A stretch of DNA of 37,014 nucleotides from Gammaproteobacteria bacterium. Its GTDB lineage: Bacteria > Pseudomonadota > Gammaproteobacteria > UBA1113. Under the pieces are notes generated by a model. It ran no database searches. It was not told the DNA's origin and saw only the letters and a program-made list of their open reading frames with translations. This document shows positions 2,700-32,853 of the stretch, piece by piece (within the stretch, counting starts at the first letter, position 1; each line of letters starts with the position of its first letter). Where the stretch lies: NCBI GenBank assembly GCA_044369355.1, contig JBIPMB010000001.1, positions 1-37,014 on the forward strand. The letters run 5' to 3'. Made by a program: the position numbers and the translations under genes.

Positions 2700-2930
2700 T
2701 TAACTTTCACAGGATACAATTGCTCCTGTCTTTGTGTTTATGGTTTCTAAATATCTCTTTTCTTTCTTCTCATCCCATAGGCTATTGCTTTTTACCATAG
2801 CATTGAGTATCAATAATAACTTATGCATTGCTGCCGTTACAGCTACCATTTTTGCTTTGCCTGCTGCTAATAACCGTTGATAAAATGCTCTTATATACCC
2901 ATCGCCAATGAAGATGCGAGAACGATGCAC
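2700..2930 (-). pseudogene. IS110/IS1111-family transposase, C-terminal fragment only
   Basis: The translation ...YIRAFYQRLLAAGKAKMVAVTAAMHKLLLILNAMVKSNSLW matches the conserved C-terminal signature of IS110-family transposases as I recall it (FYxRLxxxGKxxKVAxxAxxRKLLxILNAM). The N-terminal catalytic domain is absent. Confidence 0.55.
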
Positions 2931-3086
2931 TATCTCTTATTGAGAGCTCAGAATACTGGCCCAAAGCCATCGTTGCCGTTGTGTCAAACATGCCGTCAAT
3001 ACATCCTTGTAGGCTCGGTCGCGACATCCTGTCGCTCACGGTTTGCCACAACTTTGCAAAGGTGACTTTGAGCCTAAGTTCTGCGG
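2905..3086. repeat. Left arm of long inverted repeat
   Basis: Contains 29-bp (2962..2990) and 47-bp (3013..3059) blocks whose exact reverse complements occur at 4359..4387 and 4290..4336. Confidence 0.85.
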
Positions 3087-3115
3087 TTTTTATCTAGAAA
3101 AGAAGAAAACTCTAT

Positions 3116-3143
3116 TTGACAAAATGGCAAAGATTGTTAATAC
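3116..3143 (+). promoter_or_regulatory. Sigma70-like promoter upstream of the IS630 transposase
   Basis: TTGACA, 16-nt spacer, TAATAC, about 40 nt upstream of the ATG at 3183. Motif match only. Confidence 0.35.
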
Positions 3144-3182
3144 CCTATTGCAAAGCTGAAATAGATGTGATCAAATAAGGAT

Positions 3183-4211
3183 ATGAACCAAAAACTTAGC
3201 AAAAAAGAACGTGAAAATTTGTTGCAATCGCATCGTCAAGAGCGAGATAAGCGCGTGTGCGACCGAATAAAAGCAGTGCTAGCGTATGATGATGGTTACA
3301 GTTATGCAGAAATTGCAAAAATTCTCCTGTTAGATGACGAAACGATACGCCGTCATGTAGAAGATTATTTCTGTAAGGTGAAGCTAAAGCCGGAGAATGG
3401 AGGCAGCAGTAGTCATTTAAGCGTAAAGGAAAGCTTGTGGGTGAAAGCTCATCTAGAAGAAAATACTTATTTGTACGTTAAAGATATTTGTGCTTATGTA
3501 AAAGATAGATTTAACAAAAGATATAGTATAAGTGGTATGACAAAATGGCTGCATCAGCAAGGGTTTTGTTACAAGAAGCCCCACGGTGTACCGGCAAAAG
3601 CGGACAAGAAAGAGCAGGAAAAGTTTATAAAACGATATGCGCAATTAATAGATAAAACCCGAGGAAAAGAGCCTATTTACTTCGTAGACAGCGTGCATCC
3701 ACATCATCAAACAAGACTGACTTATGGATGGATATTAAAGGGAGTACGCAAAGATATTGCAATGACGGGTAGACAATATAAAGTCAACATCATTGGTGGA
3801 ATAAATCTAGATGGGCACAAACTAATATACAATCCAGTAGATAAAGTAGATGGTGAAGCGATCGGGGGATTTTTATTAGACTTGCGCAAACGGCATCCTG
3901 AAAAATGTAAGCTTCACATTATTTGGGATAACGCAGGATACCATCGGGATAAAGAAATAATAGAGCTAGCAAAGAAGTTAGCTATTGAATTACATTATTT
4001 ACCGCCGTATTCGCCGAACCTTAATCCTATAGAGCGCTTATGGAAGATAATGCATGAATGGGTAACTAATAATAGATATTATGAAACATTTTTAGAGTTT
4101 AGCGAAGCCATCATGAATTTTTTTAAGCTGATAGGCAGACATAAGAATATTTTACGGGCACGAATCACTGATAATTTTAGAGCGATACAATCACCGTTAT
4201 TCTCGCCTTAA
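3183..4211 (+). CDS. IS630/Tc1-mariner-family DDE transposase, apparently intact (342 aa)
   Basis: It has an N-terminal HTH region (YSYAEIAKILLLDDETIRRHV). The DDE signature reads YFVDSVHP ... IIWDNAGYHR ... LPPYSPNLNPIERLW, and PYSPxLNPIE is the classic IS630 motif. Confidence 0.9.
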   Translation: MNQKLSKKERENLLQSHRQERDKRVCDRIKAVLAYDDGYSYAEIAKILLLDDETIRRHVEDYFCKVKLKPENGGSSSHLSVKESLWVKAHLEENTYLYVKDICAYVKDRFNKRYSISGMTKWLHQQGFCYKKPHGVPAKADKKEQEKFIKRYAQLIDKTRGKEPIYFVDSVHPHHQTRLTYGWILKGVRKDIAMTGRQYKVNIIGGINLDGHKLIYNPVDKVDGEAIGGFLLDLRKRHPEKCKLHIIWDNAGYHRDKEIIELAKKLAIELHYLPPYSPNLNPIERLWKIMHEWVTNNRYYETFLEFSEAIMNFFKLIGRHKNILRARITDNFRAIQSPLFSP

Positions 4212-4262
4212 GAAAATAAGATAAGTATTTTAATGGGATTTTCTACATTTTCATGTAACGAA

Positions 4263-4429
4263 GCGCGGAACTTAAGTTCAAAGCCATCGTTGCAAAGTTG
4301 TGGCAAACCGTGAGCGACAGGATGTCGCGACCGAGCCCCCATGGATGGGTTTACGGCGTGTTTGACACAACGGCAACGATGGCTTTGAACGAGTAACCTG
4401 TGAGTTTGAGAATCTCGCATCTTGAAGTG
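4263..4429. repeat. Right arm of long inverted repeat; itself a long hairpin
   Basis: It is the reverse complement of the left arm. Internally, 4279..4293 CAAAGCCATCGTTGC pairs perfectly with 4373..4387 GCAACGATGGCTTTG. Confidence 0.85.
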
Positions 4430-4942
4430 GAATGGGTAAAGAAGGGAGTTTCTTTAAAAAAATTAAAGAAGACAGTCAAAGAGCTACTTTCAATAACCGG
4501 GGGGTCTTCATTATCTGTAGCAGCAACTGTGCCATAATGACTATCTGGTTTGTCATTCAGTAAGGAAATATTTGTAACGCTGTTTTCTTCTGGAGGTTGG
4601 CTCTCAAAATCAGTTTGTATTTGCATGGCATCTTCATAAGTTATACGCATTTTTTTAAAAGCCTATTTTGATTTCTCAATAGCAACATTATACCATTATC
4701 ATGAATATGTTCTCTTGCGAAAAGGGCCTTTATGTGAATAAACTATTATCCTTTCTGATGATGTACGCATTATAATGGTGAGGGGTAAACGCAATTAAAT
4801 TTGTTTTGAGGTTAAAATTCCAAAAAATATTGATGTACATTATAAAAAGAAAGGGAATATGCATTGAAAATTGAAATAGATGATAACTATAGCTATTATA
4901 TCTGAGGATGTAGTCGTATCAAGAGGATATTGTGTTTCAGAA

Positions 4943-4983: not shown

Positions 4984-5358
4984 CTATTCTTCAGCTTTCT
5001 TCTTCTTAGGCATTAGCTTTTCTTTAATACGTGCTGCACGACCTGTTAAGCCACGTAGATAATATAATTTAGAACGGCGCACATCACCGCGACGGATTAC
5101 TTCGATGCTGGCCAAGGCAGGGCTGTATGTTAAGAAAACGCGTTCTACGCCTTCACCATGAGAAATTTTTCTTACTGTAAATGCGGAATTTAAGCCACGA
5201 TTACGCTTAGCAATAATGACGCCTTCAAAAGCCTGTATACGTTCGTTGGTGCCTTCTTTGACTTTAACGTTGACAATGACCGTATCACCAGGATTAAATT
5301 CTGGAATTTTCTTGCCTTCCATTTGTTGCGCTTCGATCTGTTGAATTAATTTACTCAT
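4984..5358 (-). CDS. rplS: 50S ribosomal protein L19
   Basis: The translation ...[46 protein letters not shown]... is a typical L19. An AGGAG RBS lies upstream. Confidence 0.97.
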
Positions 5359-5382
5359 TATAATCTCCTCTAGTTACTTCTT

Positions 5383-5513
5383 TATACTCTTCGCATTTGA
5401 CCTTTAGGCTTTGTTGCCTTCGCCCATCTCGCATCCAGTATATGACATAAGTACGTCAATCCTTTTGCTCGAGAGCTAGGCGCCTCGCCTAAAAATCAAC
5501 TGCTGTGAGTAAG
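5383..5513. repeat. 131-bp MITE-like dispersed element, copy A (trmD/rplS junction)
   Basis: About 115/131 positions are identical to 9596..9726 by manual alignment, in the same orientation. The terminal inverted repeats are imperfect (~27 bp). Confidence 0.85.
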
Positions 5514-6236
5514 CTCAGCTAATATCTTCTTTTCCTCGGCGCTTAATTGCGCTGATTCTAATAAATCGGGTCGTTTTGCCAGTGTACGCTGTAAAGCCAT
5601 GCGGCTACGCCAGCGAGCAATCGCTTGATGATCTCCCGACAACAATACTTCGGGCACCCTAGCCCCTTCATCATTTTCTGGTCGCGTGTAATGTGGATAT
5701 TCCAACAAACCGCGGCTAAATGAATCTTCATCGGCCGAGGTGTTATCTCCCAAGGCCCCCGGTAGCAATCTTACCATGGCATCGATCACTGCCATGGCAG
5801 CAAACTCGCCACCGCTTAATACATAATCGCCTATAGAACATTCTTCATCCACTAGGCTCTCAATGAGTCGCTCGTCTATGCCTTCATAGCGACCACACAA
5901 TAAAACCAAATTATGCGTGGTTAATTTTTCTTTTAACCGTACTACGCCAGATTGTTTCAACAACGCACCCTGCGGGCTTAAATATACCACCCACAGAGGC
6001 TTATCACGCTCAGCCTGAATATGAAGTATGGCTTTACGCAAAGGTTTTGCCATCATCACCATTCCCGGGCCACCGCCATAAGGTTTATCATCCACCGTGC
6101 GATGTTTATCCTCGCTGTAATAGCGCACATCCCAGCAGGTGATATGCAACAGACCGTTTTTTACAGCGCGGCCTAAGACCCCATACTGCAGCGCTTGAAA
6201 CATCTCAGGTATAACACTGATGATATCAATATTCAC
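5496..6236 (-). CDS. trmD: tRNA (guanine37-N1)-methyltransferase
   Basis: The full-length translation has the TrmD hallmarks (DDKPYGGGPGMVM, GRYEGIDERL). The last 5 codons and the stop lie inside repeat copy A. Confidence 0.97.
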   Translation of the reverse strand: MNIDIISVIPEMFQALQYGVLGRAVKNGLLHITCWDVRYYSEDKHRTVDDKPYGGGPGMVMMAKPLRKAILHIQAERDKPLWVVYLSPQGALLKQSGVVRLKEKLTTHNLVLLCGRYEGIDERLIESLVDEECSIGDYVLSGGEFAAMAVIDAMVRLLPGALGDNTSADEDSFSRGLLEYPHYTRPENDEGARVPEVLLSGDHQAIARWRSRMALQRTLAKRPDLLESAQLSAEEKKILAELTHSS

Positions 6237-6758
6237 TTAAAAATCCGCATCCCAATCAACAATTATTTGTTGTAGCGTTTTGTCTACCGATTTTAAAAAG
6301 CGATCTTTAATCAGCGGGATTAAATATTCTTTTTCACCCGCGATCACTAATAATTCATGGGCGCCGCTATCTATAAACCCTGTTACTTTGCCTAGTTGTA
6401 CGCCTGCTACATTGATGGCGCTAAAGCCGACAATATCGTTTATATAAAATTCATCTTCTGCCAATGGCGGAAAATCGCTACGCGCTATGGCTATATCAAC
6501 GCTGGTCAAAAAACGCACTGCTTCGGGGCTGTCATAGCCCACTAAATGTACGACCCAACCCTTGCCATGTCTAGCGTGGTCATCATGCTTAATGAGTGAC
6601 CAACTGTCGCGCTCTGGACTATACCAATTGGTATAAGCCAGTAAATTTTCTTCTGGCTCGGTAAAGGACTGTACTTTAATCCAACCCTTGACGCCAAAAG
6701 GCGAACCAAAGCGGCCAATGACTATTTTTTGTTCTGTATCCGCTTTGCTCATGGTCAT
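6237..6758 (-). CDS. rimM: 16S rRNA processing protein RimM
   Basis: The N-terminus IVIGRFGSPFGVKGWIKV is typical of RimM. It occupies the conserved rpsP-rimM-trmD-rplS position. Confidence 0.95.
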   Translation of the reverse strand: MTMSKADTEQKIVIGRFGSPFGVKGWIKVQSFTEPEENLLAYTNWYSPERDSWSLIKHDDHARHGKGWVVHLVGYDSPEAVRFLTSVDIAIARSDFPPLAEDEFYINDIVGFSAINVAGVQLGKVTGFIDSGAHELLVIAGEKEYLIPLIKDRFLKSVDKTLQQIIVDWDADF

Positions 6759-6760
6759 TA

Positions 6761-7039
6761 TTAGGCAGCAACAGCAGCCTTAATCTCTTGGTTATTGTTT
6801 TTAGCATATTCTTTAACCAATGATTTGACGCGATCGCTCATTTGTGCACCAGTAGCCAGCCATTTTGCTAAAATAGCGGGATCTAGGCGCAAACGGACTT
6901 CTTGCCCGCGGGCTATTGGGTTAAAAATGCCCACTCTTTCGATAAGGCGACCATCACGCGGACAACGGCTGTCAGCAACAACGATGTGATAAAAAGGGCG
7001 TTTTTTAGCGCCACCTCTGGACAAACGGATAACAACCAT
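6761..7039 (-). CDS. rpsP: 30S ribosomal protein S16
   Basis: The translation begins [25 protein letters not shown]..., which is characteristic of S16. Confidence 0.97.
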
Positions 7040-7057: not shown

Positions 7058-7085
7058 AGTATAAAATAGTGGGGTATTCTAGCAA
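7058..7085 (-). promoter_or_regulatory. Sigma70-like promoter for the rpsP operon
   Basis: On the minus strand: TTGCTA (7085..7080), 16-nt spacer, TATACT (7063..7058). It overlaps the stop codon of the upstream 470-aa ORF. Motif match only. Confidence 0.4.
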
Positions 7086-17300: not shown

Positions 17301-17782
17301 TGGCTGCAATCCGTGGTGATCTTAAACTTGTGAAACTGCTATTAGAAAACGACGCGGATCCTGCTATAGCGAATGATGCTGGAAAGAAATTTCATCAACT
17401 ACAACAGGCTAATGGAGACACAGTACTGCATTTGGCTGCACGTCGTGGTGATCTTAAGTTTGTACAACTGCTATTAGAAAAGGGCGCGGATCCTACTATA
17501 GCGAATAATGATAGAAGAAAATTTCATGAACTAAAACAGGCTAATGGCGGTACAGCGCTAAGTTTGGCGATGTCTAAACACATTGATGATGTTAAGTTGA
17601 TAAGTACTTTGATGCGAAATGGTGCTAAGCTTGATGTAAAAGATGGTAAACAGAGTGCTGAGAGAAAGGAATTATCTTTTGCCACACGGCTATATAGATT
17701 CTTTAGTTCTTCTTCAGAAAAGGAAGTAGTTCCCGCCGCACTTATCAGCAGACGTTTTGTCAAGCTCCCCCCCGCCGCTTAA
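14327..17782 (+). CDS. Kinase-fold / ankyrin-repeat protein (~1151 aa), candidate eukaryote-targeting effector
   Basis: The N-terminal third carries ordered kinase landmarks (LGEGNDSAVY, LAIKIE, RINLNQSNFLV, DFV, APE). The rest is about 20 ANK repeats (xTPLHLAAxxGxxxxVxLLLxxGAxxN). I prefer the ATG at 14327 (GAAGG 7 nt upstream) over the GTG at 14312. Confidence 0.85.
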   Translation: MSAKLPTVKVDEKTYSLLIVKTGSTPKQRYFLLDEKLGEGNDSAVYVAYEATKRGVGKFRYELNEKAAKPLAIKIEKNYSSKDRPQIMKQREVESKIPPNPNTDIYPIGDHGIAKVRLKVPGKPLNDLINTKEFKKLTLSQRLELAKTYAEFHQKQGEQGRKYNNDKMGANRINLNQSNFLVDIRYAAGDKKHEHPIFECNKIDFVDLSVRTPLTTAPECMHGEEIGCPLDNALEMETYSLTAMIALILGETDVFKDKKNNEDVKGKFNLDNMQKYLEKESKESKFEIEIKAVIDMVQSMQNDNPALRPSAPAIVKVLDRAQLAVLGKEHDESDDAKDIEKFFAAIKAGDLEYINENSNPNMLAQLDIEGLTPLGVAIKHGQNEIAKKLFEQYNSEEKKAAVRQTDSNGRTLLHLAILAKNAVLVNSLLENGAEANKKDADNRTPLHCALSMRCGLEIVKDLLDKRADVEEKDNHGRYPEEMAIANKCDVAIVKLLLERTATYKDYEKDIKLRIKLLFLAIKSGSKELVEYFLNGDIIKKQHLFLVSPLHFAASVGHVEVAEFLITKGFSPVLPDREGNTPLHYAAMKGQLEMAILLLVKGANLGHQTNAANQKFHEVTDSKGNTLLHIAIREGNVGFAKKLIASGANVNTKDGKGFTPLHLAIIKGDIRLVELLIASGANVNAKNSEGMTPLHLAASYRKLELVQLLLQKNPNLNIEDKNGQKFHEVTDSKGNTLLHIAIDEGKIDLAKMLIGIGANVNVTNSEGKTPLYLAISNRELGLIQLLLEQGADPNREYGRDKKKFHEITDSDENTLLHIAIDEGKANLAKRLIDMGANVNAQNKQGQTPLHLAAIYGELGPIQLLLRHNADTELKDGSGRKFHEVTDSKRNTLLHIAIHEGKIDLAKKLIEMGADLDAQNSHRETPLHLAAIHDGLWLVQLLERNGNPELKDDNKNTLLHIAIHKGQIDLARKLIKIGTDVNAQNSQGNTPLHLAAIRGDLKLVKLLLENDADPAIANDAGKKFHQLQQANGDTVLHLAARRGDLKFVQLLLEKGADPTIANNDRRKFHELKQANGGTALSLAMSKHIDDVKLISTLMRNGAKLDVKDGKQSAERKELSFATRLYRFFSSSSEKEVVPAALISRRFVKLPPAA
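16163..17560 (+). repeat. Intragenic tandem modules encoding 2-3 ANK repeats each
   Basis: The 24-mer AATACTTTACTACATATCGCTATT occurs exactly five times, starting at 16196, 16526, 16760, 16991 and 17186. The 68 nt at 16163 and 16493 differ at only 3 positions. Confidence 0.9.
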
Positions 17783-22510: not shown

Positions 22511-22635
22511 CATACTCTTCGGCCAATGAAGATGCGAGAATGTGCGTAGGGGCAGGCCTCCGTGCCTGTCCTAAAGGGGCAACCACAGGGGGTTGCCCCT
22601 ACGCACCGAGCCGCATCTTGAAGTGCTTGAGTATG
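22511..22635. mobile_element. 125-bp palindromic MITE-like element at the hemD/hemX junction
   Basis: Its ends CATACTCTTCGGCCAATGAAGATGCGAGA and CGCATCTTGAAGTGCTTGAGTATG match the ends of the 2894..4440 element. The internal inverted repeat GTGCGTAGGGGCA / TGCCCCTACGCAC is 13 bp and perfect. Confidence 0.75.
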
Positions 22636-23372
22636 GCCTCGTCGCTGGCGTTATCTGCCACAGTAATGCTTCCTTTATGGCCCAATTTGCGCGCTAATGA
22701 GCACATTTTATCACTAATGAGCAAGAGATGACAGTCGCGCCAATCGGGTTTGTTCATTGGTTGTGCAAAATGTAATAAAAGCGCTAAATTTTGCAACCCC
22801 TCACTACTGGTGACGATGAATAAGCTGCTTTTGGGAGTATGTATCTGTTTTTCTAAGTCTAGGGAGGGCGTAGGGCAGTGACGTTCATAGCAATCAAAAA
22901 TTGTAACTATGGCGCCTTGTTGTTGTAAACTGGGCGCTAATAAGCCGCGGCCGCCTTTACCCTTAAAAATAGCGATTTTTTGTCCTTTTACATTTTTTAA
23001 AACTGCCAAATTCAATAAACCCTCGCTGGAATACTCTTTTTCGGGTGTGATTATATTATGAAAGCCATAGTGTATCAGCGCTTTTGCCGTTCCAGGGCCT
23101 TGCGCGACGAATTGTGTAGTAGGCCAAATTTTTGGACTTAATGCACATAATTTCATGGCGTGATGCACGGCGGTAGGGCTGACAAACAAGGCGCTATTAA
23201 AAAGTGTATTTCTAAAATTGTGAAAATAAGGGATCACGTCAGAATTTTCTGCAATTTCTAATGTAGGAAAGAGTAAGGGTTGAAAGCCCAATGTTTGTAA
23301 ACGCTGTAGCAACGATGAGGCCGTGGTAATAGGTTTAGTAATGACTATATGTTCGATGTGATTGACATTCAT
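22599..23372 (-). CDS. hemD: Uroporphyrinogen-III synthase
   Basis: Its size and position upstream of hemX-hemY fit HemD, and the fold pattern is HemD-like. The last 11 codons and the stop lie inside the 125-bp element. Confidence 0.85.
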   Translation of the reverse strand: MNVNHIEHIVITKPITTASSLLQRLQTLGFQPLLFPTLEIAENSDVIPYFHNFRNTLFNSALFVSPTAVHHAMKLCALSPKIWPTTQFVAQGPGTAKALIHYGFHNIITPEKEYSSEGLLNLAVLKNVKGQKIAIFKGKGGRGLLAPSLQQQGAIVTIFDCYERHCPTPSLDLEKQIHTPKSSLFIVTSSEGLQNLALLLHFAQPMNKPDWRDCHLLLISDKMCSLARKLGHKGSITVADNASDEAILKHFKMRLGA

Positions 23373-23561: not shown

Positions 23562-24161
23562 ATGCCAAAGAAAGCAACGAAGCATGCCGCTCATAGTGGT
23601 ATTCACAGTTTGCAAAGCGAATGCAAAGCTATTTTGCAAAAATTAACTGCAGCGCATCAAGATTGGGTGAAAAGCACCGAGAAAGCGGCTGCTAAAATCA
23701 AAGCACAATGGGCCAAAGCGGATCAAATAGTGAAAAAAGCTAAAGCTCAAAAGGCAGCTCTCAAGGGTAAAGGCGCTGGTAAAAAAACGGCTACGCACAA
23801 AAAGCAAGCCGATAAAGTAACAATGGCTTTTGTTCAAGCTAAAACCTTAGCACAAAGCTTAAAGAAAGAATTATCTGCTGTATTGCCAGAATTGAAGACA
23901 GCAAAAGCGGCATTAAAACGCCATATAGCAGTAGAAAAAGTGGCAGCTAAAAAAATAGTTGCAGCTAAAGTCAAAGCAGCTCCAGCTAAGGCCAAGAAAG
24001 CAGCCCCAGCTAAGGCCAAGAAAGCAGCTCCAGCTAAGGCCAAGAAAGCAGCTCCAGCTAAGGCCAAGAAAGCAGCTCCAGCTAAGGCCAAGAAAGCTGC
24101 AGGCAAAAGCACACGTGGCCATAAGGCAAAGCCGGTAGTGGTGGCTGCGGAACAAGCCTAG
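23562..24161 (+). CDS. Lys/Ala-rich histone-H1-like / AlgP-like basic protein (199 aa)
   Basis: The whole sequence is Lys/Ala-rich and the C-terminus carries (AAPAKAKK)x5. A GGAGAAG RBS is present. Confidence 0.8.
   Translation: MPKKATKHAAHSGIHSLQSECKAILQKLTAAHQDWVKSTEKAAAKIKAQWAKADQIVKKAKAQKAALKGKGAGKKTATHKKQADKVTMAFVQAKTLAQSLKKELSAVLPELKTAKAALKRHIAVEKVAAKKIVAAKVKAAPAKAKKAAPAKAKKAAPAKAKKAAPAKAKKAAPAKAKKAAGKSTRGHKAKPVVVAAEQA
23977..24096 (+). repeat. Five tandem 24-bp coding repeats
   Basis: GCAGCTCCAGCTAAGGCCAAGAAA is repeated five times with a single substitution, in unit 2. Confidence 0.95.
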
Positions 24162-24173
24162 AGATTGTCAGTT

Positions 24174-24290
24174 CGCTTGTAGGGGCGGCTCGCGAGCCGC
24201 CCAGAATCAACGCGTATGACCATGGATTTGCGTGTAGTCATTGTCATGTGCTGTGTTAGCAGGGCGCCTCGCGAGGCGCCCCTACAAGCG
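24174..24290. repeat. 117-bp element bounded by inverted GTAGGGGC-type hairpin units
   Basis: CGCTTGTAGGGGCGGCTCGCGAGCCGCCC sits at the left and its near-exact reverse complement at the right. Each end contains a perfect GC palindrome. Confidence 0.8.
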
Positions 24291-24307
24291 AGCACCCGTT
24301 TACATCC

Positions 24308-24333
24308 CCTAAGAATCAAATGCGAAGAGTATA
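24308..24333. repeat. 26-bp fragment identical to the left terminus of the 131-bp element (inverted)
   Basis: CCTAAGAATCAAATGCGAAGAGTATA is the exact reverse complement of 9596..9621. Confidence 0.8.
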
Positions 24334-27650: not shown

Positions 27651-27677
27651 AAATTTTGATTGGCTTGACCGCAGATC

Positions 27678-27705
27678 TGTTGTAGGGGCGGCTCGCGAGC
27701 CGCCC
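27678..27705. repeat. GTAGGGGC-type REP-like hairpin between convergent genes
   Basis: TTGTAGGGGCGGCTCGCGAGCCGCCC is identical over 26 nt to 24177..24202. It contains the 20-nt perfect palindrome GGGCGGCTCGCGAGCCGCCC. Confidence 0.8.
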
Positions 27706-27743: not shown

Positions 27744-28976
27744 TTACTCCACAACCGCCTGCATAGGTTCTTCCGCGCGTATAGCCCAGGTGTAAAAACT
27801 AAAGCCAATGAATATAAAAGCAGCGCAAGCTGTAGCAATCGATGTAGCGCTTTGAACATTGATCAAACTCATCAGAAAACCAGAAAATGTGGCTATACAT
27901 AGATAGATTAGGCTCGCAATGGCTGCGGCGCTGCCCGCCATTTCCCTAAATAGACTCATCGTTGCGCCCATGCACGTGGGGTACAGTATGCCGTTAGAAA
28001 AATACAAAACCGCTGTAGGAATCAGTATTGCCCATACATTGTTGCTGTAATAATGAGTTATTAAAACGCCCAGTAAAGCGCATATTAAAGCCATCGGCAG
28101 ACCTATAGACAATATTTTCTGTGATGTAAAACGTTTAATTAAGGCTCTACAAAAGAATGTGCCACATAAAGCGATGATTCCCAAACAAAAAGCAGCATGA
28201 CCAAAAAAGATAGGGGTATACCCTAATTTCTTTTCAATGAAAAAAGGCCCTAGGCTATTAAAGACTACAAGAAAAGAAAAAAGACAGCCCATTAATACAC
28301 CGATGCTCATGAAAACCTTGTGGCGCAACAGTAGTGAAAAATTATTTTTAACGCGTTTAAAACTCAAAGCAGTACGTTTATGATGAGTTTCTGGTAACCA
28401 CAACAAACAAGCGATTAGGCTGATGAAACCGTAAACGGCAAAAAATAAGAAATTAGCCTGCCAACCTATGTAGACTTGTAAGTAGCTGCCGATAACAGGC
28501 CCAATGATAGGGCCTAGAGCCCACATCGTCGCCAACCATGCAGCGGTACGCAACAAGGCGGGCCCAGTCAATAAATCCACTGCGACTGAACGCATGAGTA
28601 CGCCAAAGGTGCCTATGGCAACTCCCTGCAATAGCCGCGATAATAATAAAATAGAAGGATAGGGCCATAATGCGGGTAATATGCTGACAATAACCAATAG
28701 AATAAAACCGCTTAATATTAAAGGACGGCGACCCCAGGTTTCAGATAATATTCCACTGAAAAAAGTACTGATTGCACCGCCTATGATAAAAAAAGTGATG
28801 AGATCTTTAGCAACCATGGGGGACGTGTGTAAAGCATGATTGATAGCGGGAAGCGATGGCGCAATTAAATCTATACCCATGCCCATCAATGGCATAAAAC
28901 ACATGAGCATGGCGATAATGCCACGTTTTCTGGCTTCTGAAAGGGGCGGGTGAGTGCTGTTATATTCTATAGCCAT
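27744..28976 (-). CDS. MFS transporter (DHA1/Bcr-CflA-like), paralog 1
   Basis: It has 12 predicted TM segments and the loop motif SETWGRRPL. By eye it is roughly two-thirds identical to 30141..31367. Confidence 0.9.
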   Translation of the reverse strand: MAIEYNSTHPPLSEARKRGIIAMLMCFMPLMGMGIDLIAPSLPAINHALHTSPMVAKDLITFFIIGGAISTFFSGILSETWGRRPLILSGFILLVIVSILPALWPYPSILLLSRLLQGVAIGTFGVLMRSVAVDLLTGPALLRTAAWLATMWALGPIIGPVIGSYLQVYIGWQANFLFFAVYGFISLIACLLWLPETHHKRTALSFKRVKNNFSLLLRHKVFMSIGVLMGCLFSFLVVFNSLGPFFIEKKLGYTPIFFGHAAFCLGIIALCGTFFCRALIKRFTSQKILSIGLPMALICALLGVLITHYYSNNVWAILIPTAVLYFSNGILYPTCMGATMSLFREMAGSAAAIASLIYLCIATFSGFLMSLINVQSATSIATACAAFIFIGFSFYTWAIRAEEPMQAVVE

Positions 28977-30140: not shown

Positions 30141-31367
30141 TTATTCCGCCACCACTTGTTCAGCCCTCTTACTCCGCATTGCCCAGGCATACAACACAAA
30201 ACCAACGAATATAAAGGCGGCGCTGGTGTAGGCAATTGGTCTAGAACTTTGAACGCTGATCATGCTGGCCAGAAAACCAGAACCCATAGTTACACCTAAA
30301 TTGATTAAGGTAGTAACACCGCCGGCACTGCCCGCCAGTTCTTTAAACATGCTCATTGTTATACCCATACAAGTGGGATACAGTACGCCGTTAGAAAAGA
30401 ACAAGAAAGCAGTGGGAATGAGTATTGCCCACACATTATGACTAAAAGAAGTCATTACAACACCGACCAAGGAAAATATTAAAACTATGGGCGTACCTGT
30501 AGACAATATTTTTTTCGGGTCTACATATTTGACCAAAACGCGACAACAAAATGTTCCAGACAAGAAGACGAGTCCCAAACAAAAAGCGGCGTGACCAAAA
30601 AATATAGGGGAATGACCTAACTTTTTCTCAATGAAAAAAGGCCCTAAAGTGTTAAAAATGATAAGAGTAGAATAAAGGCAACCCATTAACACACTGACGC
30701 TTACGAAAATTTTATCGCGTAACAGAATGGCAAAGTTATTTTTAATGCGCGTTACACTTAATGCCGGGCGTTTATGTTTATGGTGTGTTTCAGGCAACCA
30801 TAGAAAACAGGCTACAGCCCCTACAAGGCCATAAACCGCAAAAAATAAAAAACAAGCCTGCCAGCCTATATACACTTGTAAATAACCGCCAATGATGGGT
30901 CCAATGATAGGGCCGATACCCCACATCGTTGCTACCCATGAAGCGGTACGCAATAAAGTCGTTCCAGTTAGTAAGTCGGCTATGACGGAACGCATTAACA
31001 CACTAAAAGTGCCTATCGCTAAACCTTGTAACAAGCGAGATAATAATAAAATAGAGGGGTAAGGATAAAGTGGTGGTATTACACTGACAATAACCAATAA
31101 AGTAAAACCGATTAACATAAGACGGCGACGTCCCCAGGTATCCGATAATATGCCGCTCAAAAAAGTGCCGCTCATCAAACCCATTAAATAAATAGCGATG
31201 AGATCTTTGGCGACCATGGGAGAGATGTGTAAAGTCTGATTGATGGCGGGCAGTGAAGGCGCAATTAAATCAATACCCATCCCTACTAACGGTAGAAAAC
31301 ACAATAACATCCTAACGATGGCGCGTGTTTTGGCTTCTGAAAGGGGTAGTTCATGGGATGAGGTCAC
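30141..31367 (-). CDS. MFS transporter (DHA1/Bcr-CflA-like), paralog 2
   Basis: It has 12 predicted TM segments and the loop motif SDTWGRRRL, and is a paralog of 27744..28976. Confidence 0.9.
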   Translation of the reverse strand: MTSSHELPLSEAKTRAIVRMLLCFLPLVGMGIDLIAPSLPAINQTLHISPMVAKDLIAIYLMGLMSGTFLSGILSDTWGRRRLMLIGFTLLVIVSVIPPLYPYPSILLLSRLLQGLAIGTFSVLMRSVIADLLTGTTLLRTASWVATMWGIGPIIGPIIGGYLQVYIGWQACFLFFAVYGLVGAVACFLWLPETHHKHKRPALSVTRIKNNFAILLRDKIFVSVSVLMGCLYSTLIIFNTLGPFFIEKKLGHSPIFFGHAAFCLGLVFLSGTFCCRVLVKYVDPKKILSTGTPIVLIFSLVGVVMTSFSHNVWAILIPTAFLFFSNGVLYPTCMGITMSMFKELAGSAGGVTTLINLGVTMGSGFLASMISVQSSRPIAYTSAAFIFVGFVLYAWAMRSKRAEQVVAE

Positions 31368-31737: not shown

Positions 31738-32763
31738 ATGTCTACTACTATCACTGTAGCGCTGGATGCCATGGGCGGCGACCACGGACCACCGGTCATC
31801 GTGCCCGCAGCATTAAGCGCTCTGGACTATTATCCGCAATTATCCCTCATTCTAGTAGGGGATGAGACCGTATTAAAATCATTACTCATCAAAAAACGCT
31901 ACGATACCAGCCGCTTGCGCGTACATCATGCCAGTGAACAAGTGGCTATGGATGAAGCGCCAGCGCAAGCCTTGCGTTACAAAAAAGATTCTTCTATGCG
32001 CGTGGCGCTCAATCTAGTTAAAGAGGGAATAGCCAGCGCTTGTGTGAGCGCGGGTAATACCGGTGCCTTATTAGCGACGGCGCGGTTTGTGTTAAAAATG
32101 TTACCGGGTATAGATCGCCCGGCACTCATTGGTTTGATGCCTACCACGGTCGGTAACACTATGGTACGAGTATTGGATTTAGGTGCAAACATCGACTCTA
32201 CCGCTACACACTTATTACAATTTGCTGCAATGGGACACATAGTCTCGCATGCCATCGATGGCGTGGATAAACCGCGCATCGCTTTACTGAATATAGGTGA
32301 AGAAGAAATTAAAGGCAATGAAGTCATTAAACAAGCATCGCAATTATTTGCAGCGCAATCCTCTCTAAATTACATAGGTTTTGTGGAAGCCAACGATTTA
32401 TTTACCGGTAAAGCAGATGTCATAGTGTGCGATGGTTTTATAGGTAATATTGCTTTAAAGGCTTGCGAAGGTACGGCGCGGATGTTGTTACAAATTTTTA
32501 AAGCAGCTATACAAAAAAGTATTTTAGCGCGTTTAGCGATTCCTTTTTTATTGCCCGTATTAAACAAAACAAAAAAACAGTTTGACCCAGCGCGTTATAA
32601 TGGCGCTTCTTTTTTAGGATTAAATGGCGTTGTTGTAAAAAGTCATGGTAATGCTAAAGAAGTTGCTTTTCGTATGGCGATTTATCAGGCCTTAAGACAA
32701 GCCGAGCAAGCAGTACCGCAACAAATCGCCAGCCGGGTAGAAATAACTTTAGCGAATACATAA
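31738..32763 (+). CDS. plsX: Phosphate acyltransferase PlsX
   Basis: ALDAMGGDHGP near the N-terminus and the full-length match identify PlsX, and the rpmF-plsX-fabH order is conserved. Confidence 0.97.
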   Translation: MSTTITVALDAMGGDHGPPVIVPAALSALDYYPQLSLILVGDETVLKSLLIKKRYDTSRLRVHHASEQVAMDEAPAQALRYKKDSSMRVALNLVKEGIASACVSAGNTGALLATARFVLKMLPGIDRPALIGLMPTTVGNTMVRVLDLGANIDSTATHLLQFAAMGHIVSHAIDGVDKPRIALLNIGEEEIKGNEVIKQASQLFAAQSSLNYIGFVEANDLFTGKADVIVCDGFIGNIALKACEGTARMLLQIFKAAIQKSILARLAIPFLLPVLNKTKKQFDPARYNGASFLGLNGVVVKSHGNAKEVAFRMAIYQALRQAEQAVPQQIASRVEITLANT

Positions 32764-32770
32764 AAAAGAA

Positions 32771-32810
32771 CGTAGGGGCAGGCCCCTGTGCCTGCTCAAT
32801 AGGGTAAGCA
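32771..32810. repeat. GTAGGGGC-type REP-like half element (plsX/fabH spacer)
   Basis: CGTAGGGGCAGGCCCCTGTGCCTGCTCAATAGGG closely resembles 22545..22578 (CGTAGGGGCAGGCCTCCGTGCCTGTCCTAAAGGG). Confidence 0.55.
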
Positions 32811-32853
32811 CAGGCTGTTTCTGTGCACTGACGCATCCCGTGAGGAGTAAATA

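Follow-up and report, generated by a model that had tools for sequence, protein, structure and literature searches.

The stretch analyzed here, hereafter the window, comprises 37,014 nucleotides (nt) of contig JBIPMB010000001.1 (assembly GCA_044369355.1), from a gammaproteobacterium of the GTDB group UBA1113. Its minus strand carries, in this order, gidA, gidB, parA, parB, an open reading frame (ORF) of 470 amino acids (aa), rpsP, rimM, trmD and rplS, and two of the spacers in this run, trmD/rplS and parA/parB, each hold a copy (A and B, respectively) of one 131-nt repeat (Table 1). A first-pass annotation of the sequence had described an element that occupies the trmD/rplS spacer and ends TrmD, with imperfectly inverted termini (about 19/27), a left end 24 bp from the rplS ATG, and a near-identical copy (about 115/131) in the same orientation at 9596..9726, without remarking that the latter lies between parA and parB. 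Each of these statements is borne out: the trmD TGA lies inside copy A, the distance to the rplS ATG at 5358 is 24 nt, direct reading of the termini gives 19/27, and the two copies, on the same strand, align without gaps and are identical at 117 of 131 positions (89%). The window holds two to three occurrences of each terminal motif, and 100 shuffles gave none. From the evidence given below we regard the repeat, with considerable confidence, as a non-autonomous DNA transposon, or MITE (for miniature inverted-repeat transposable element), belonging to the ERIC/IRU/MITEEc1 family, of which no member was previously reported from this lineage.

Table 1. Coordinates of the element copies, their terminal inverted repeats (TIRs), the resident insertion sequence and the surrounding genes in the window; a slash marks an element boundary.
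Feature	Position	Strand	Remarks
IS630-family insertion sequence	2894..4438	+	Ends TA/TACCCATCGCCAATGAAGATGCGAG... and ...GGAATGGGTA; NCBIfam NF033545, 204.9 bits; Pfam DDE_3, HTH_33
rplS	4984..5358	-	Native Shine-Dalgarno sequence GAGGAG and 24-nt leader kept downstream of the element
Copy A of the ERIC-type MITE	5383..5513	+	In canonical orientation, with the TATACTCTTCGC... end at 5383; minus strand scores 125 bits with the covariance model
Copy A, left TA	5383..5384
Copy A, element proper	5385..5511		TACTC...GAGTA
Copy A, gene-side flank	5512..5513		AG (in the family: TA)
Copy A, left TIR	5383..5409	+	TATACTCTTCGCATTTGACCTTTAGGC; 19/27 match to the reverse complement of 5487-5513
Copy A, right TIR	5487..5513	+	Minus strand CTT ACT CAC AGC AGT TGA = L-T-H-S-S-stop of TrmD
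trmD stop codon, TGA	5496..5498	-	Supplied by the element; inside copy A
trmD	5496..6236	-	tRNA m1G37 methyltransferase; Pfam PF01746, E = 6e-56; ends ...AELTHSS-stop
rimM	6237..6758	-
rpsP	6761..7039	-
470-aa ORF	7079..8491	-	No Pfam match; between parB and rpsP
parB	8683..9567	-	Real start ATG at 9567
Copy B of the same MITE	9596..9726	+	parA/parB spacer; covariance model 138 bits; same orientation relative to transcription as copy A
parA	9709..10512	-	Soj-type ATPase; ends ...NKLTHSS-stop; stop 9709-9711 within copy B
PhzF-family ORF	10673..11467	+	Between gidB and parA
gidB	11630..12268	-
gidA	12240..14138	-
Solitary left TIR of the same family	24307..24333	-	26/27 match; weak full-model hit 24233-24333, 19.8 bits

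A Dispersed Family With Filled and Empty Sites

A species-representative genome collection was scanned for exact matches to the 18-mer TATACTCTTCGCATTTGA, taken from the left end, which was found at no fewer than 90 loci; loci retrieved for comparison carry the labels L001-L090, L114, L115 and so on. Among the matches listed, a profile search of the loci recovered at least 72 full-length copies, which their flanks place at 66 or more independent sites, and more than 10 related metagenome-assembled genomes (MAGs) carry copies: these include JAJXVU, JAJYCX, JAJXUV, VFJV, VFJT and JAJNBM, bins labelled only as Proteobacteria or Gammaproteobacteria (BP5.bin43, BP9.bin76, BP5.bin118, Bin_72_2, Bin_72_12, and C_No_T20_B_bin.126), the kind that makes up most of the hosts, and further bins under the labels Legionellales, Coxiellaceae, Legionellaceae, Rickettsiella or Aquirickettsiella. 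Copies are most often 127 nt long (30 of the 72 full-length copies), and the window copies measure 131 nt. The window DNA is 90-95% identical to contigs of BP5.bin43 and BP9.bin76, and the closest named relatives of its TrmD are only ~58-60% identical. A scan of metagenomes returned only 20 loci, few true copies among them, and looking up the exact TrmD protein of the window matched no contig.

The site of copy A is empty in four relatives: L085 (BP5.bin43), L091 (an ENA contig), L115/L117 (GCA_027456025.1 and kin), and L119 (a JGI contig). The trmD/rplS spacer is 15-18 nt long in L085, L091 and L115/L117; the TrmD proteins of the relatives with an empty junction are 94-97% identical to that of the window, and the L085 flanks are ~95% identical at the nucleotide level. 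Without the repeat, TrmD ends in ELIKE, ELREE and ELTKE in L085, L091 and L115/L117, or elsewhere in ELKK, and the LTHSS tail was found in none of the 14 TrmD homologues inspected. Copy B, in turn, is present in L085 and absent in L091, which has 10 nt between parA and parB and a ParA with the C-terminus ...KSKTTNA; since BP5.bin43 has copy B and lacks copy A, copy B is the older of the two. The first-pass annotation had made its reading of a mobile repeat depend on the sequence not being unique to the two window loci and on the orthologous TrmD proteins of repeat-free relatives not ending in LTHSS. With so many copies, and with empty orthologous sites at which the tail is different, that reading stands: this is a mobile MITE, one end of which supplies the TrmD tail and stop codon.

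The variability of this tail is also seen at L119 (1100-1165), where the trmD stop was lost by a small change unrelated to the element and reading continues so as to overlap the rplS start; the read-through shows the TrmD tail to be freely variable.

A partial copy is found at the solitary left TIR in the window, 1 nt past the stop of a 93-aa ORF, where a GC-rich palindrome replaces the remainder of the element.

Target Site and Proposed Repair of the Gene Junctions

The family has well conserved termini, with TATACTC in 65 and GAGTATA in 57 of the 72 copies. In one clean filled/empty pair, L054 versus L041, the dinucleotide TA is single at the empty site and stands on both sides when the site is filled, which defines the element proper as TACTC...GAGTA, with duplication of TA. 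The first-pass annotation saw no target-site duplication, and this is correct for copies A and B as they stand, but not for the family. In both window copies the junction by which the gene enters the element reads CT/TACTC, against the family norm of TA/TACTC, so that one base of the TA is missing; the TA is normal on the rplS-facing side of copy A and on the parB-facing side of copy B.

Five codons plus the stop had been ascribed to the element at the first pass; of these, T-H-S-S-stop is confirmed, while the Leu codon at 5511-5513 (CTT) is a hybrid whose CT is ancestral (relatives have CTA, also Leu). Copy B has given the same T-H-S-S-stop tail to ParA. Translation into either TIR meets a stop after a few codons in at least two of its three frames. 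The simplest reading of the gene-side junctions, judged on sequence, is that one base was lost after insertion at a CTA Leu codon, and the loss at both would be a compensatory change: with it, trmD and parA are read in the frame that stops after four codons of the element, where an intact TA junction would yield a 12-residue tail (YSQQLIFRRGA). On the other side of copy B, a longer parB ORF reaching to 9672 is an artefact, as its start codon falls inside the element.

Another copy of the family is found at the rimM/trmD junction, at codons 2-3 of trmD, in L091 (5916-6044) and L115 (~2415-2545). Here the junction is two bases short and an ATG internal to the element is in frame, such that the called TrmD proteins (P0002 and P0003) start inside the element, with a 14-residue N-terminal extension MSAANKAYNQSAKS; the shortened junction supports the idea of junction changes that fix the reading frame.

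Some orthologous copies, with identical flanks and the same odd junctions, differ in whole central blocks. This is the case for window copy B versus L085 (2155-2281) and for the rimM/trmD copies of L091 versus L115, the exchanged blocks being the hairpin tip (GACGTACTTATGTCATATA vs. GTAGTACTCTACATGA) and GAAGAC vs. GGCGCC; such differences imply gene conversion between dispersed copies.

The Family Is Related to ERIC

The family is short (127-131 nt, below the 300 bp of such elements), non-coding, dispersed, bounded by TIRs, duplicates TA and is present or absent at orthologous sites: these are the generic hallmarks of a MITE. Its relationship to ERIC was addressed by comparison with sequences from Escherichia coli. 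An ERIC consensus was used to locate E. coli copies; it was matched in all of 5,426 E. coli genomes (5,426/5,426), at a median of 11 places per genome, and a genuine E. coli ERIC, of the same length and with the same ends as the family, was retrieved from between yeiL and psuT (L114:301-427). Global alignment of the family consensus, on one strand, to this ERIC gave 82 identities in 127 positions, with a score of 99 against 42 ± 8 for shuffles. A covariance model (R1) built from 71 family copies gave the same ERIC 52.3 bits (E ~2e-9) in a hit spanning model positions 1-127, and its other strand only 14.8 bits. The relationship is a distant one, given that a narrow nhmmer profile of the family missed the E. 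coli ERIC. The window had no Rfam hit at the gathering score, and only chance-level hits at 5300-5600.

ERIC has been described as a 127-bp hairpin MITE which duplicates TA and lies in transcribed spacers, sometimes fused to the end of an ORF (PMC2229807; PMC2759123; PMC10969869). The present family resembles ERIC/IRU/RU-1 (MITEEc1 in ISfinder, with MITEPlu5 in Photorhabdus and MITEYpe1 in Yersinia) in its 127-bp consensus, its TATACTC...GAGTATA termini, its TA duplication and its single long hairpin; the two have in common the center CCAGGAG...GACTGG, the block AGGCGGCAAGC, and the strand that folds better, and like ERIC the family is located in transcribed spacers at gene ends, where it can be fused to ORF ends. 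A tail in Erwinia Tdh, YTRHTSS..., derives from ERIC (PMC2759123) and is the direct counterpart of the YTHSS-stop and LTHSS-stop tails made by this family. Unlike ERIC, the family has its own TIR sequence (the 18-mer used above), comes in two alternative hairpin-tip variants, and is only ~65% identical to ERIC. The hosts differ as well: for ERIC, Enterobacteriaceae and Vibrionaceae are given as the only hosts (PMC10969869), whereas the carriers found here are uncultured gammaproteobacterial MAGs, some of them binned as Legionellales, Coxiellaceae or Rickettsiella, although host range is not a structural criterion. Both the element and the event are of a known kind, that of an ERIC-type MITE; what is new is the host lineage.

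Likeness to other repeats is more partial. The first-pass annotation had looked to Rickettsia palindromic elements (RPE) and the Correia elements of Neisseria for the nearest kin, a suggestion which gives way to ERIC/IRU (MITEEc1) as the closest known relative, on homology of both sequence and structure. As with RPE, a palindromic repeat lies within coding sequence, but RPE are in-frame and translated in full length inside proteins, whereas here four codons are followed by a stop encoded in the TIR; nor is TA duplication established for RPE (PMC2229807, Table 1). Correia/NEMIS elements also duplicate TA, have TATA-type termini, are co-transcribed with the genes beside them, form a hairpin RNA and on occasion overlap the ends of ORFs (PMC2229807), but have different TIRs, a site for IHF, outward promoters and processing by RNase III; a promoter scan of the window copies of this family was negative. 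RUP of Streptococcus pneumoniae and other MITEs derived from IS630 likewise target TA, have TIRs resembling a resident IS630-family insertion sequence (IS), measure ~100-130 bp and bring in-frame stops (PMC2229807); RUP is a 107-bp element of a Gram-positive host, and no sequence relationship to it is expected. The MITEs QMITE1 and QMITE2 of Coxiella burnetii, which also belongs to the Legionellales, give rise to long palindromic RNAs overlapping the ends of ORFs (PMC5896051), and were the first to be suspected here, from the IS, the ankyrin repeats and the palindromes of the window; their sizes and direct repeats (QMITE1, 300-400 bp with variable direct repeats of 2-4 bp; QMITE2, 150-190 bp with direct repeats of 7-11 nt and a GTAG-type repetitive extragenic palindrome (REP); PMC5896051) do not fit a 127-bp element bounded by TA. 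A palindrome of the REP/RAYT type (20-40 nt, with a GTAG/CGTC head and neither TIRs nor target-site duplication) does not fit the length of 127 nt, the TIRs and the TA duplication.

A Conserved Hairpin With Strand Asymmetry

The fold of the transcript-sense sequence, which the first-pass annotation had left to be computed, is one long hairpin, with a free energy of -53.3 kcal/mol for copy A (z = -5.3) and -55.0 kcal/mol for copy B (z = -7.6), against -37.7 kcal/mol for copy A read on the opposite strand. Taken over 71 copies, pairing extends to 94.7% of the cells, and to more than 95% in the TIR helices; compensatory double changes occur in 17 of the 28 pairs, a level reached by none of 500 shuffles, and controls in which the pairing was slid collapse. 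On the strand transcribed here there are 190 G·U cells versus 35 A·C cells, and in 68 of 72 copies this same strand folds more stably than its complement, the mean difference being 10.7 kcal/mol. The homologous strand of the E. coli ERIC also folds better than its complement (-60.0 vs. -49.3 kcal/mol). Where the flanking genes are co-directional, the better-folding strand is the transcribed one at 21 sites and the other at 8 (p = 0.024). These observations point toward a single strand being under constraint, the simplest candidate being the RNA.

Stop Codons at the Left End

Genes of at least 100 aa that read toward the left end (TATACTCTTCGC...) have a stop codon which exactly abuts the element at 11 of 20 independent sites, with TAA, TGA and TAG all represented. 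At the right end, 3 of 26 stops abut the element and 7 genes overlap it (Fisher p = 0.003 vs. the left end). TA directly follows the stop in only 8.4% of the genes in the loci, and a random intergenic TA would be found there in ~1-2%. Purely mechanistic causes (use of the TA within TAA or TAG as the target, a longer duplication, or a sequence preference) were considered, and none of these fits the flanks. One spacer between convergent genes is occupied in opposite orientations in two loci (L041, 2764-2895; L054, 1021-1148), with stops that touch or nearly touch the ends of the element. In L083 (~2283-2438) a copy directly follows the apparent 3' end of a tRNA gene (...GGTTCGAGTCCGGCTTTCGGCACCA/TATACTC).

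De Gregorio et al., in J Bacteriol in 2005, reportedly found that ERICs next to stop codons in Yersinia prefer one orientation, and are said to have proposed the ribosome-dependent unmasking of an RNase E site; of these points, secondary sources bear out only the importance of orientation. The conservation of the fold from Enterobacterales to the present MAGs, the abutment of stop codons at the left end and the convergent site filled in both orientations together raise the idea that ERIC-type hairpins are an ancient RNA-constrained module, and more than parasites that are tolerated, the placement of which is coupled to translation termination, and which might act at operon junctions as a ribosome-sensitive switch in mRNA processing; we consider this unlikely as it stands and offer it as a speculation.

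Candidate Transposase and Proposed Mechanism

An IS630-family IS lies ~1 kb from copy A, with a transposase ORF of 342 aa (3183-4211). Its TIR shares the pattern TATACyCwTCGC..TGA with that of the MITE, only 15 of 27 positions matching without gaps, and its ends match the right end of the E. coli ERIC at 18 of 27. Similarity between the TIRs of an ERIC-type element, MITEPlu5, and 'CCC-type' IS630 elements has been published for Photorhabdus (PMC6267812). The presence in the window of an IS with related TIRs, together with this published link, makes mobilization in trans by an IS630/Tc1-mariner-type DDE transposase the best-supported mechanism, and by analogy we infer that the MITE is moved in this way.

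In the mechanism we propose, such a transposase would bind the TIRs and paste the element into a TA dinucleotide. In the window lineage, copy A was inserted at a TA that lay two or three codons ahead of the trmD stop, after the split from the ~95%-identical relatives; thanks to the stops borne by the TIR, TrmD lost only two to three variable residues and gained T-H-S-S-stop, and the ribosome-binding site of rplS stayed intact. An older insertion did likewise to parA, and loss of one base of the TA at the gene-side junctions would have given the frame with the shortest tail. The element would be co-transcribed within the operon, in the orientation that yields the long RNA hairpin (~-53 kcal/mol); on the example of ERIC it probably alters the processing or stability of the local mRNA, and its effect there may be close to neutral.

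The IS itself has unusually long internal inverted repeats of 153 nt, 84% complementary (2949-3101 and 4248-4400), which flank the transposase ORF. Its right junction, GGGTA/AA, is without the T of the expected TA, as in both MITE copies. A second MITE of ~124 nt lies between hemD and hemX (22513-22636); its core is a GC-rich palindrome of the GTAG type, and its ends (ATACTCTTCGGCCAATGAAGATGCGAG...) are intermediate between those of the ERIC-type MITE and those of the IS, and nearly identical to the latter. HemD takes its final 12 residues and its stop from this element (ILKHFKMRLGA-stop), the RNA of the element folds with -66.5 kcal/mol (z = -5.7), and similar short elements are present in L090, L025, L010 and L084.

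Points Against and Alternative Explanations

Several observations weigh against an ERIC-type MITE moved by such a transposase, or limit what can be concluded from it. All of the relatives are MAGs, so that the number of copies counted in each genome is a minimum, and the binning may contain errors. Copies A and B do not themselves show a clean TA duplication, the gene-side TA being down to one base. A full-length IS with the exact TIRs of the MITE (TACTCTTCGCATTTGA ends) was not found in the loci examined, 14 loci with solitary left ends held no autonomous parent beside them, and tblastn with the window transposase found no further copy in the loci examined; with the limited TIR match of the co-resident IS, the mobilizing enzyme has to be inferred. 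The first-pass annotation had suggested that the element could add processing sites, promoters or attenuators; a consensus scan detected no promoter-like or intrinsic-terminator-like site inside copy A or B. Any regulatory role would be argued from analogy, and the fold asymmetry, of -7 to -12 kcal/mol, recurs in all orientation classes and thus provides no evidence of selection at each site; it may have been inherited from master copies.

This last point bears on a different view of the same ERIC-type MITE, namely that it is kept at operon junctions as a selected cis-regulatory hairpin RNA, an entry point for RNase E/III or a stabilizer, uncoupling rplS from trmD and parB from parA, along the lines put forward for the ERICs of Yersinia. 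The covariation and the G·U asymmetry of the strands, conserved in the E. coli ERIC, speak for this, as do the excess of sites at which the folding strand is transcribed, the shared orientation of all four operon-internal copies (trmD/rplS, parA/parB, and rimM/trmD in L091 and L115), and the orientation-dependent effect of ERIC on the stability of co-transcribed mRNA, as given in secondary sources (PMC2229807; PMC10969869, citing De Gregorio, 2005). Against these stand the relatives with 94-97% identical TrmD and the same operon, which works there without copy A, and the asymmetry of the fold irrespective of orientation; the orientation bias is modest, moreover, and the sites are not fully independent phylogenetically. 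We judge selected regulation possible, though rather less probable than its absence. A local origin of copies A and B, in which one operon junction received its copy from the other by duplication or gene conversion and not by independent transposition, would account for the odd CT/TACTC junction and LTHSS tail which they have in common, including the same missing base at the gene-side junction and the same longer variant of the central loop, and the block differences between orthologous copies (copy B in the window vs. L085; rimM/trmD in L091 vs. L115) do imply conversion between copies. Yet the two are only 89% identical although copy A is younger than the split from the ~95%-identical relatives, they share no flank beyond 'CT', their rplS- and parB-side junctions each have a normal TA, and mobility of the family is shown independently; a local origin is therefore quite improbable. 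The proposal with least in its favor is that no transposon is involved, and that the repeat is either a gene for a structured non-coding RNA or a palindrome of the REP type, spread in some other way, such as by a RAYT/Y1 transposase or by single-strand transposition of the IS200/IS605 type, with the strand-specific hairpin as the substrate. The entire element is indeed one long imperfect palindrome with a strand-specific fold, the excess of stop abutment at the left end (11/20 vs. 3/26) recalls the end-specific targeting of IS200/IS605, and GTAG-type REP-like palindromes are present in the same genomes; but the TA...TA boundary with a single TA at the empty site, the 27-nt TIRs related to an IS630-family IS in the same window, and homology to ERIC, which duplicates TA (PMC2759123), speak against it, as does the lack of a constant tetra- or pentanucleotide 5' of the left end, of a GTAG head and of a match to any Rfam family. 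We give this proposal very little credence, and retain an ERIC-type MITE as the identification of the repeat.

Other Features of the Window

The 470-aa ORF between parB and rpsP was initially assumed to be ffh, which was ruled out as the ORF is without a Pfam hit. The segment that includes it (~7109-8672) is missing from L085 and L091, which are otherwise collinear, and in L115 a different ORF of 491 aa, with no recorded Pfam hit, lies at its position.

GC-rich, REP-like palindromes with a GTAG head (e.g., TGTAGGGGCGGCTCGCGAGCCGCCCC) are intergenic at 22545-22578, 24169-24291, 27672-27705 and 32771-32804; at the last of these junctions (32763-32841), BP9.bin76 (L031) has a different palindrome. 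An ORF of 199 aa (23562-24161) contains tandem 24-nt repeats, by eye a tract rich in lysine and alanine (AAKKAAPAKA-like), and is without a family match. Two paralogues of ~410 aa (27744-28976 and 30141-31367), with ~75% DNA identity, lie 2.4 kb apart; the product of the first, which is the one tested, is a major-facilitator transporter. A protein of 1156 aa packed with ankyrin repeats is encoded at 14312-17782, and suggests a host-associated lifestyle.

Significance

ERIC is among the oldest known families of bacterial repeats and the basis of typing by ERIC-PCR, and it is here extended to a distant, uncultured lineage of Gammaproteobacteria, which is probably host-associated. Both the hairpin structure and its strand specificity are conserved across the distance from ERIC to these MAGs. 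For gene annotation, the termini of trmD, parA and hemD and the start of parB are either element-derived or mis-called, and gene calling that is aware of such repeats is needed. The essential rpsP operon has been hit repeatedly, at both ends of trmD and in different lineages, and copy A represents a clean natural case, with filled and empty sites among 94-97%-identical relatives, of a MITE which rewrites the end of an essential, universally conserved gene and leaves the operon unharmed.

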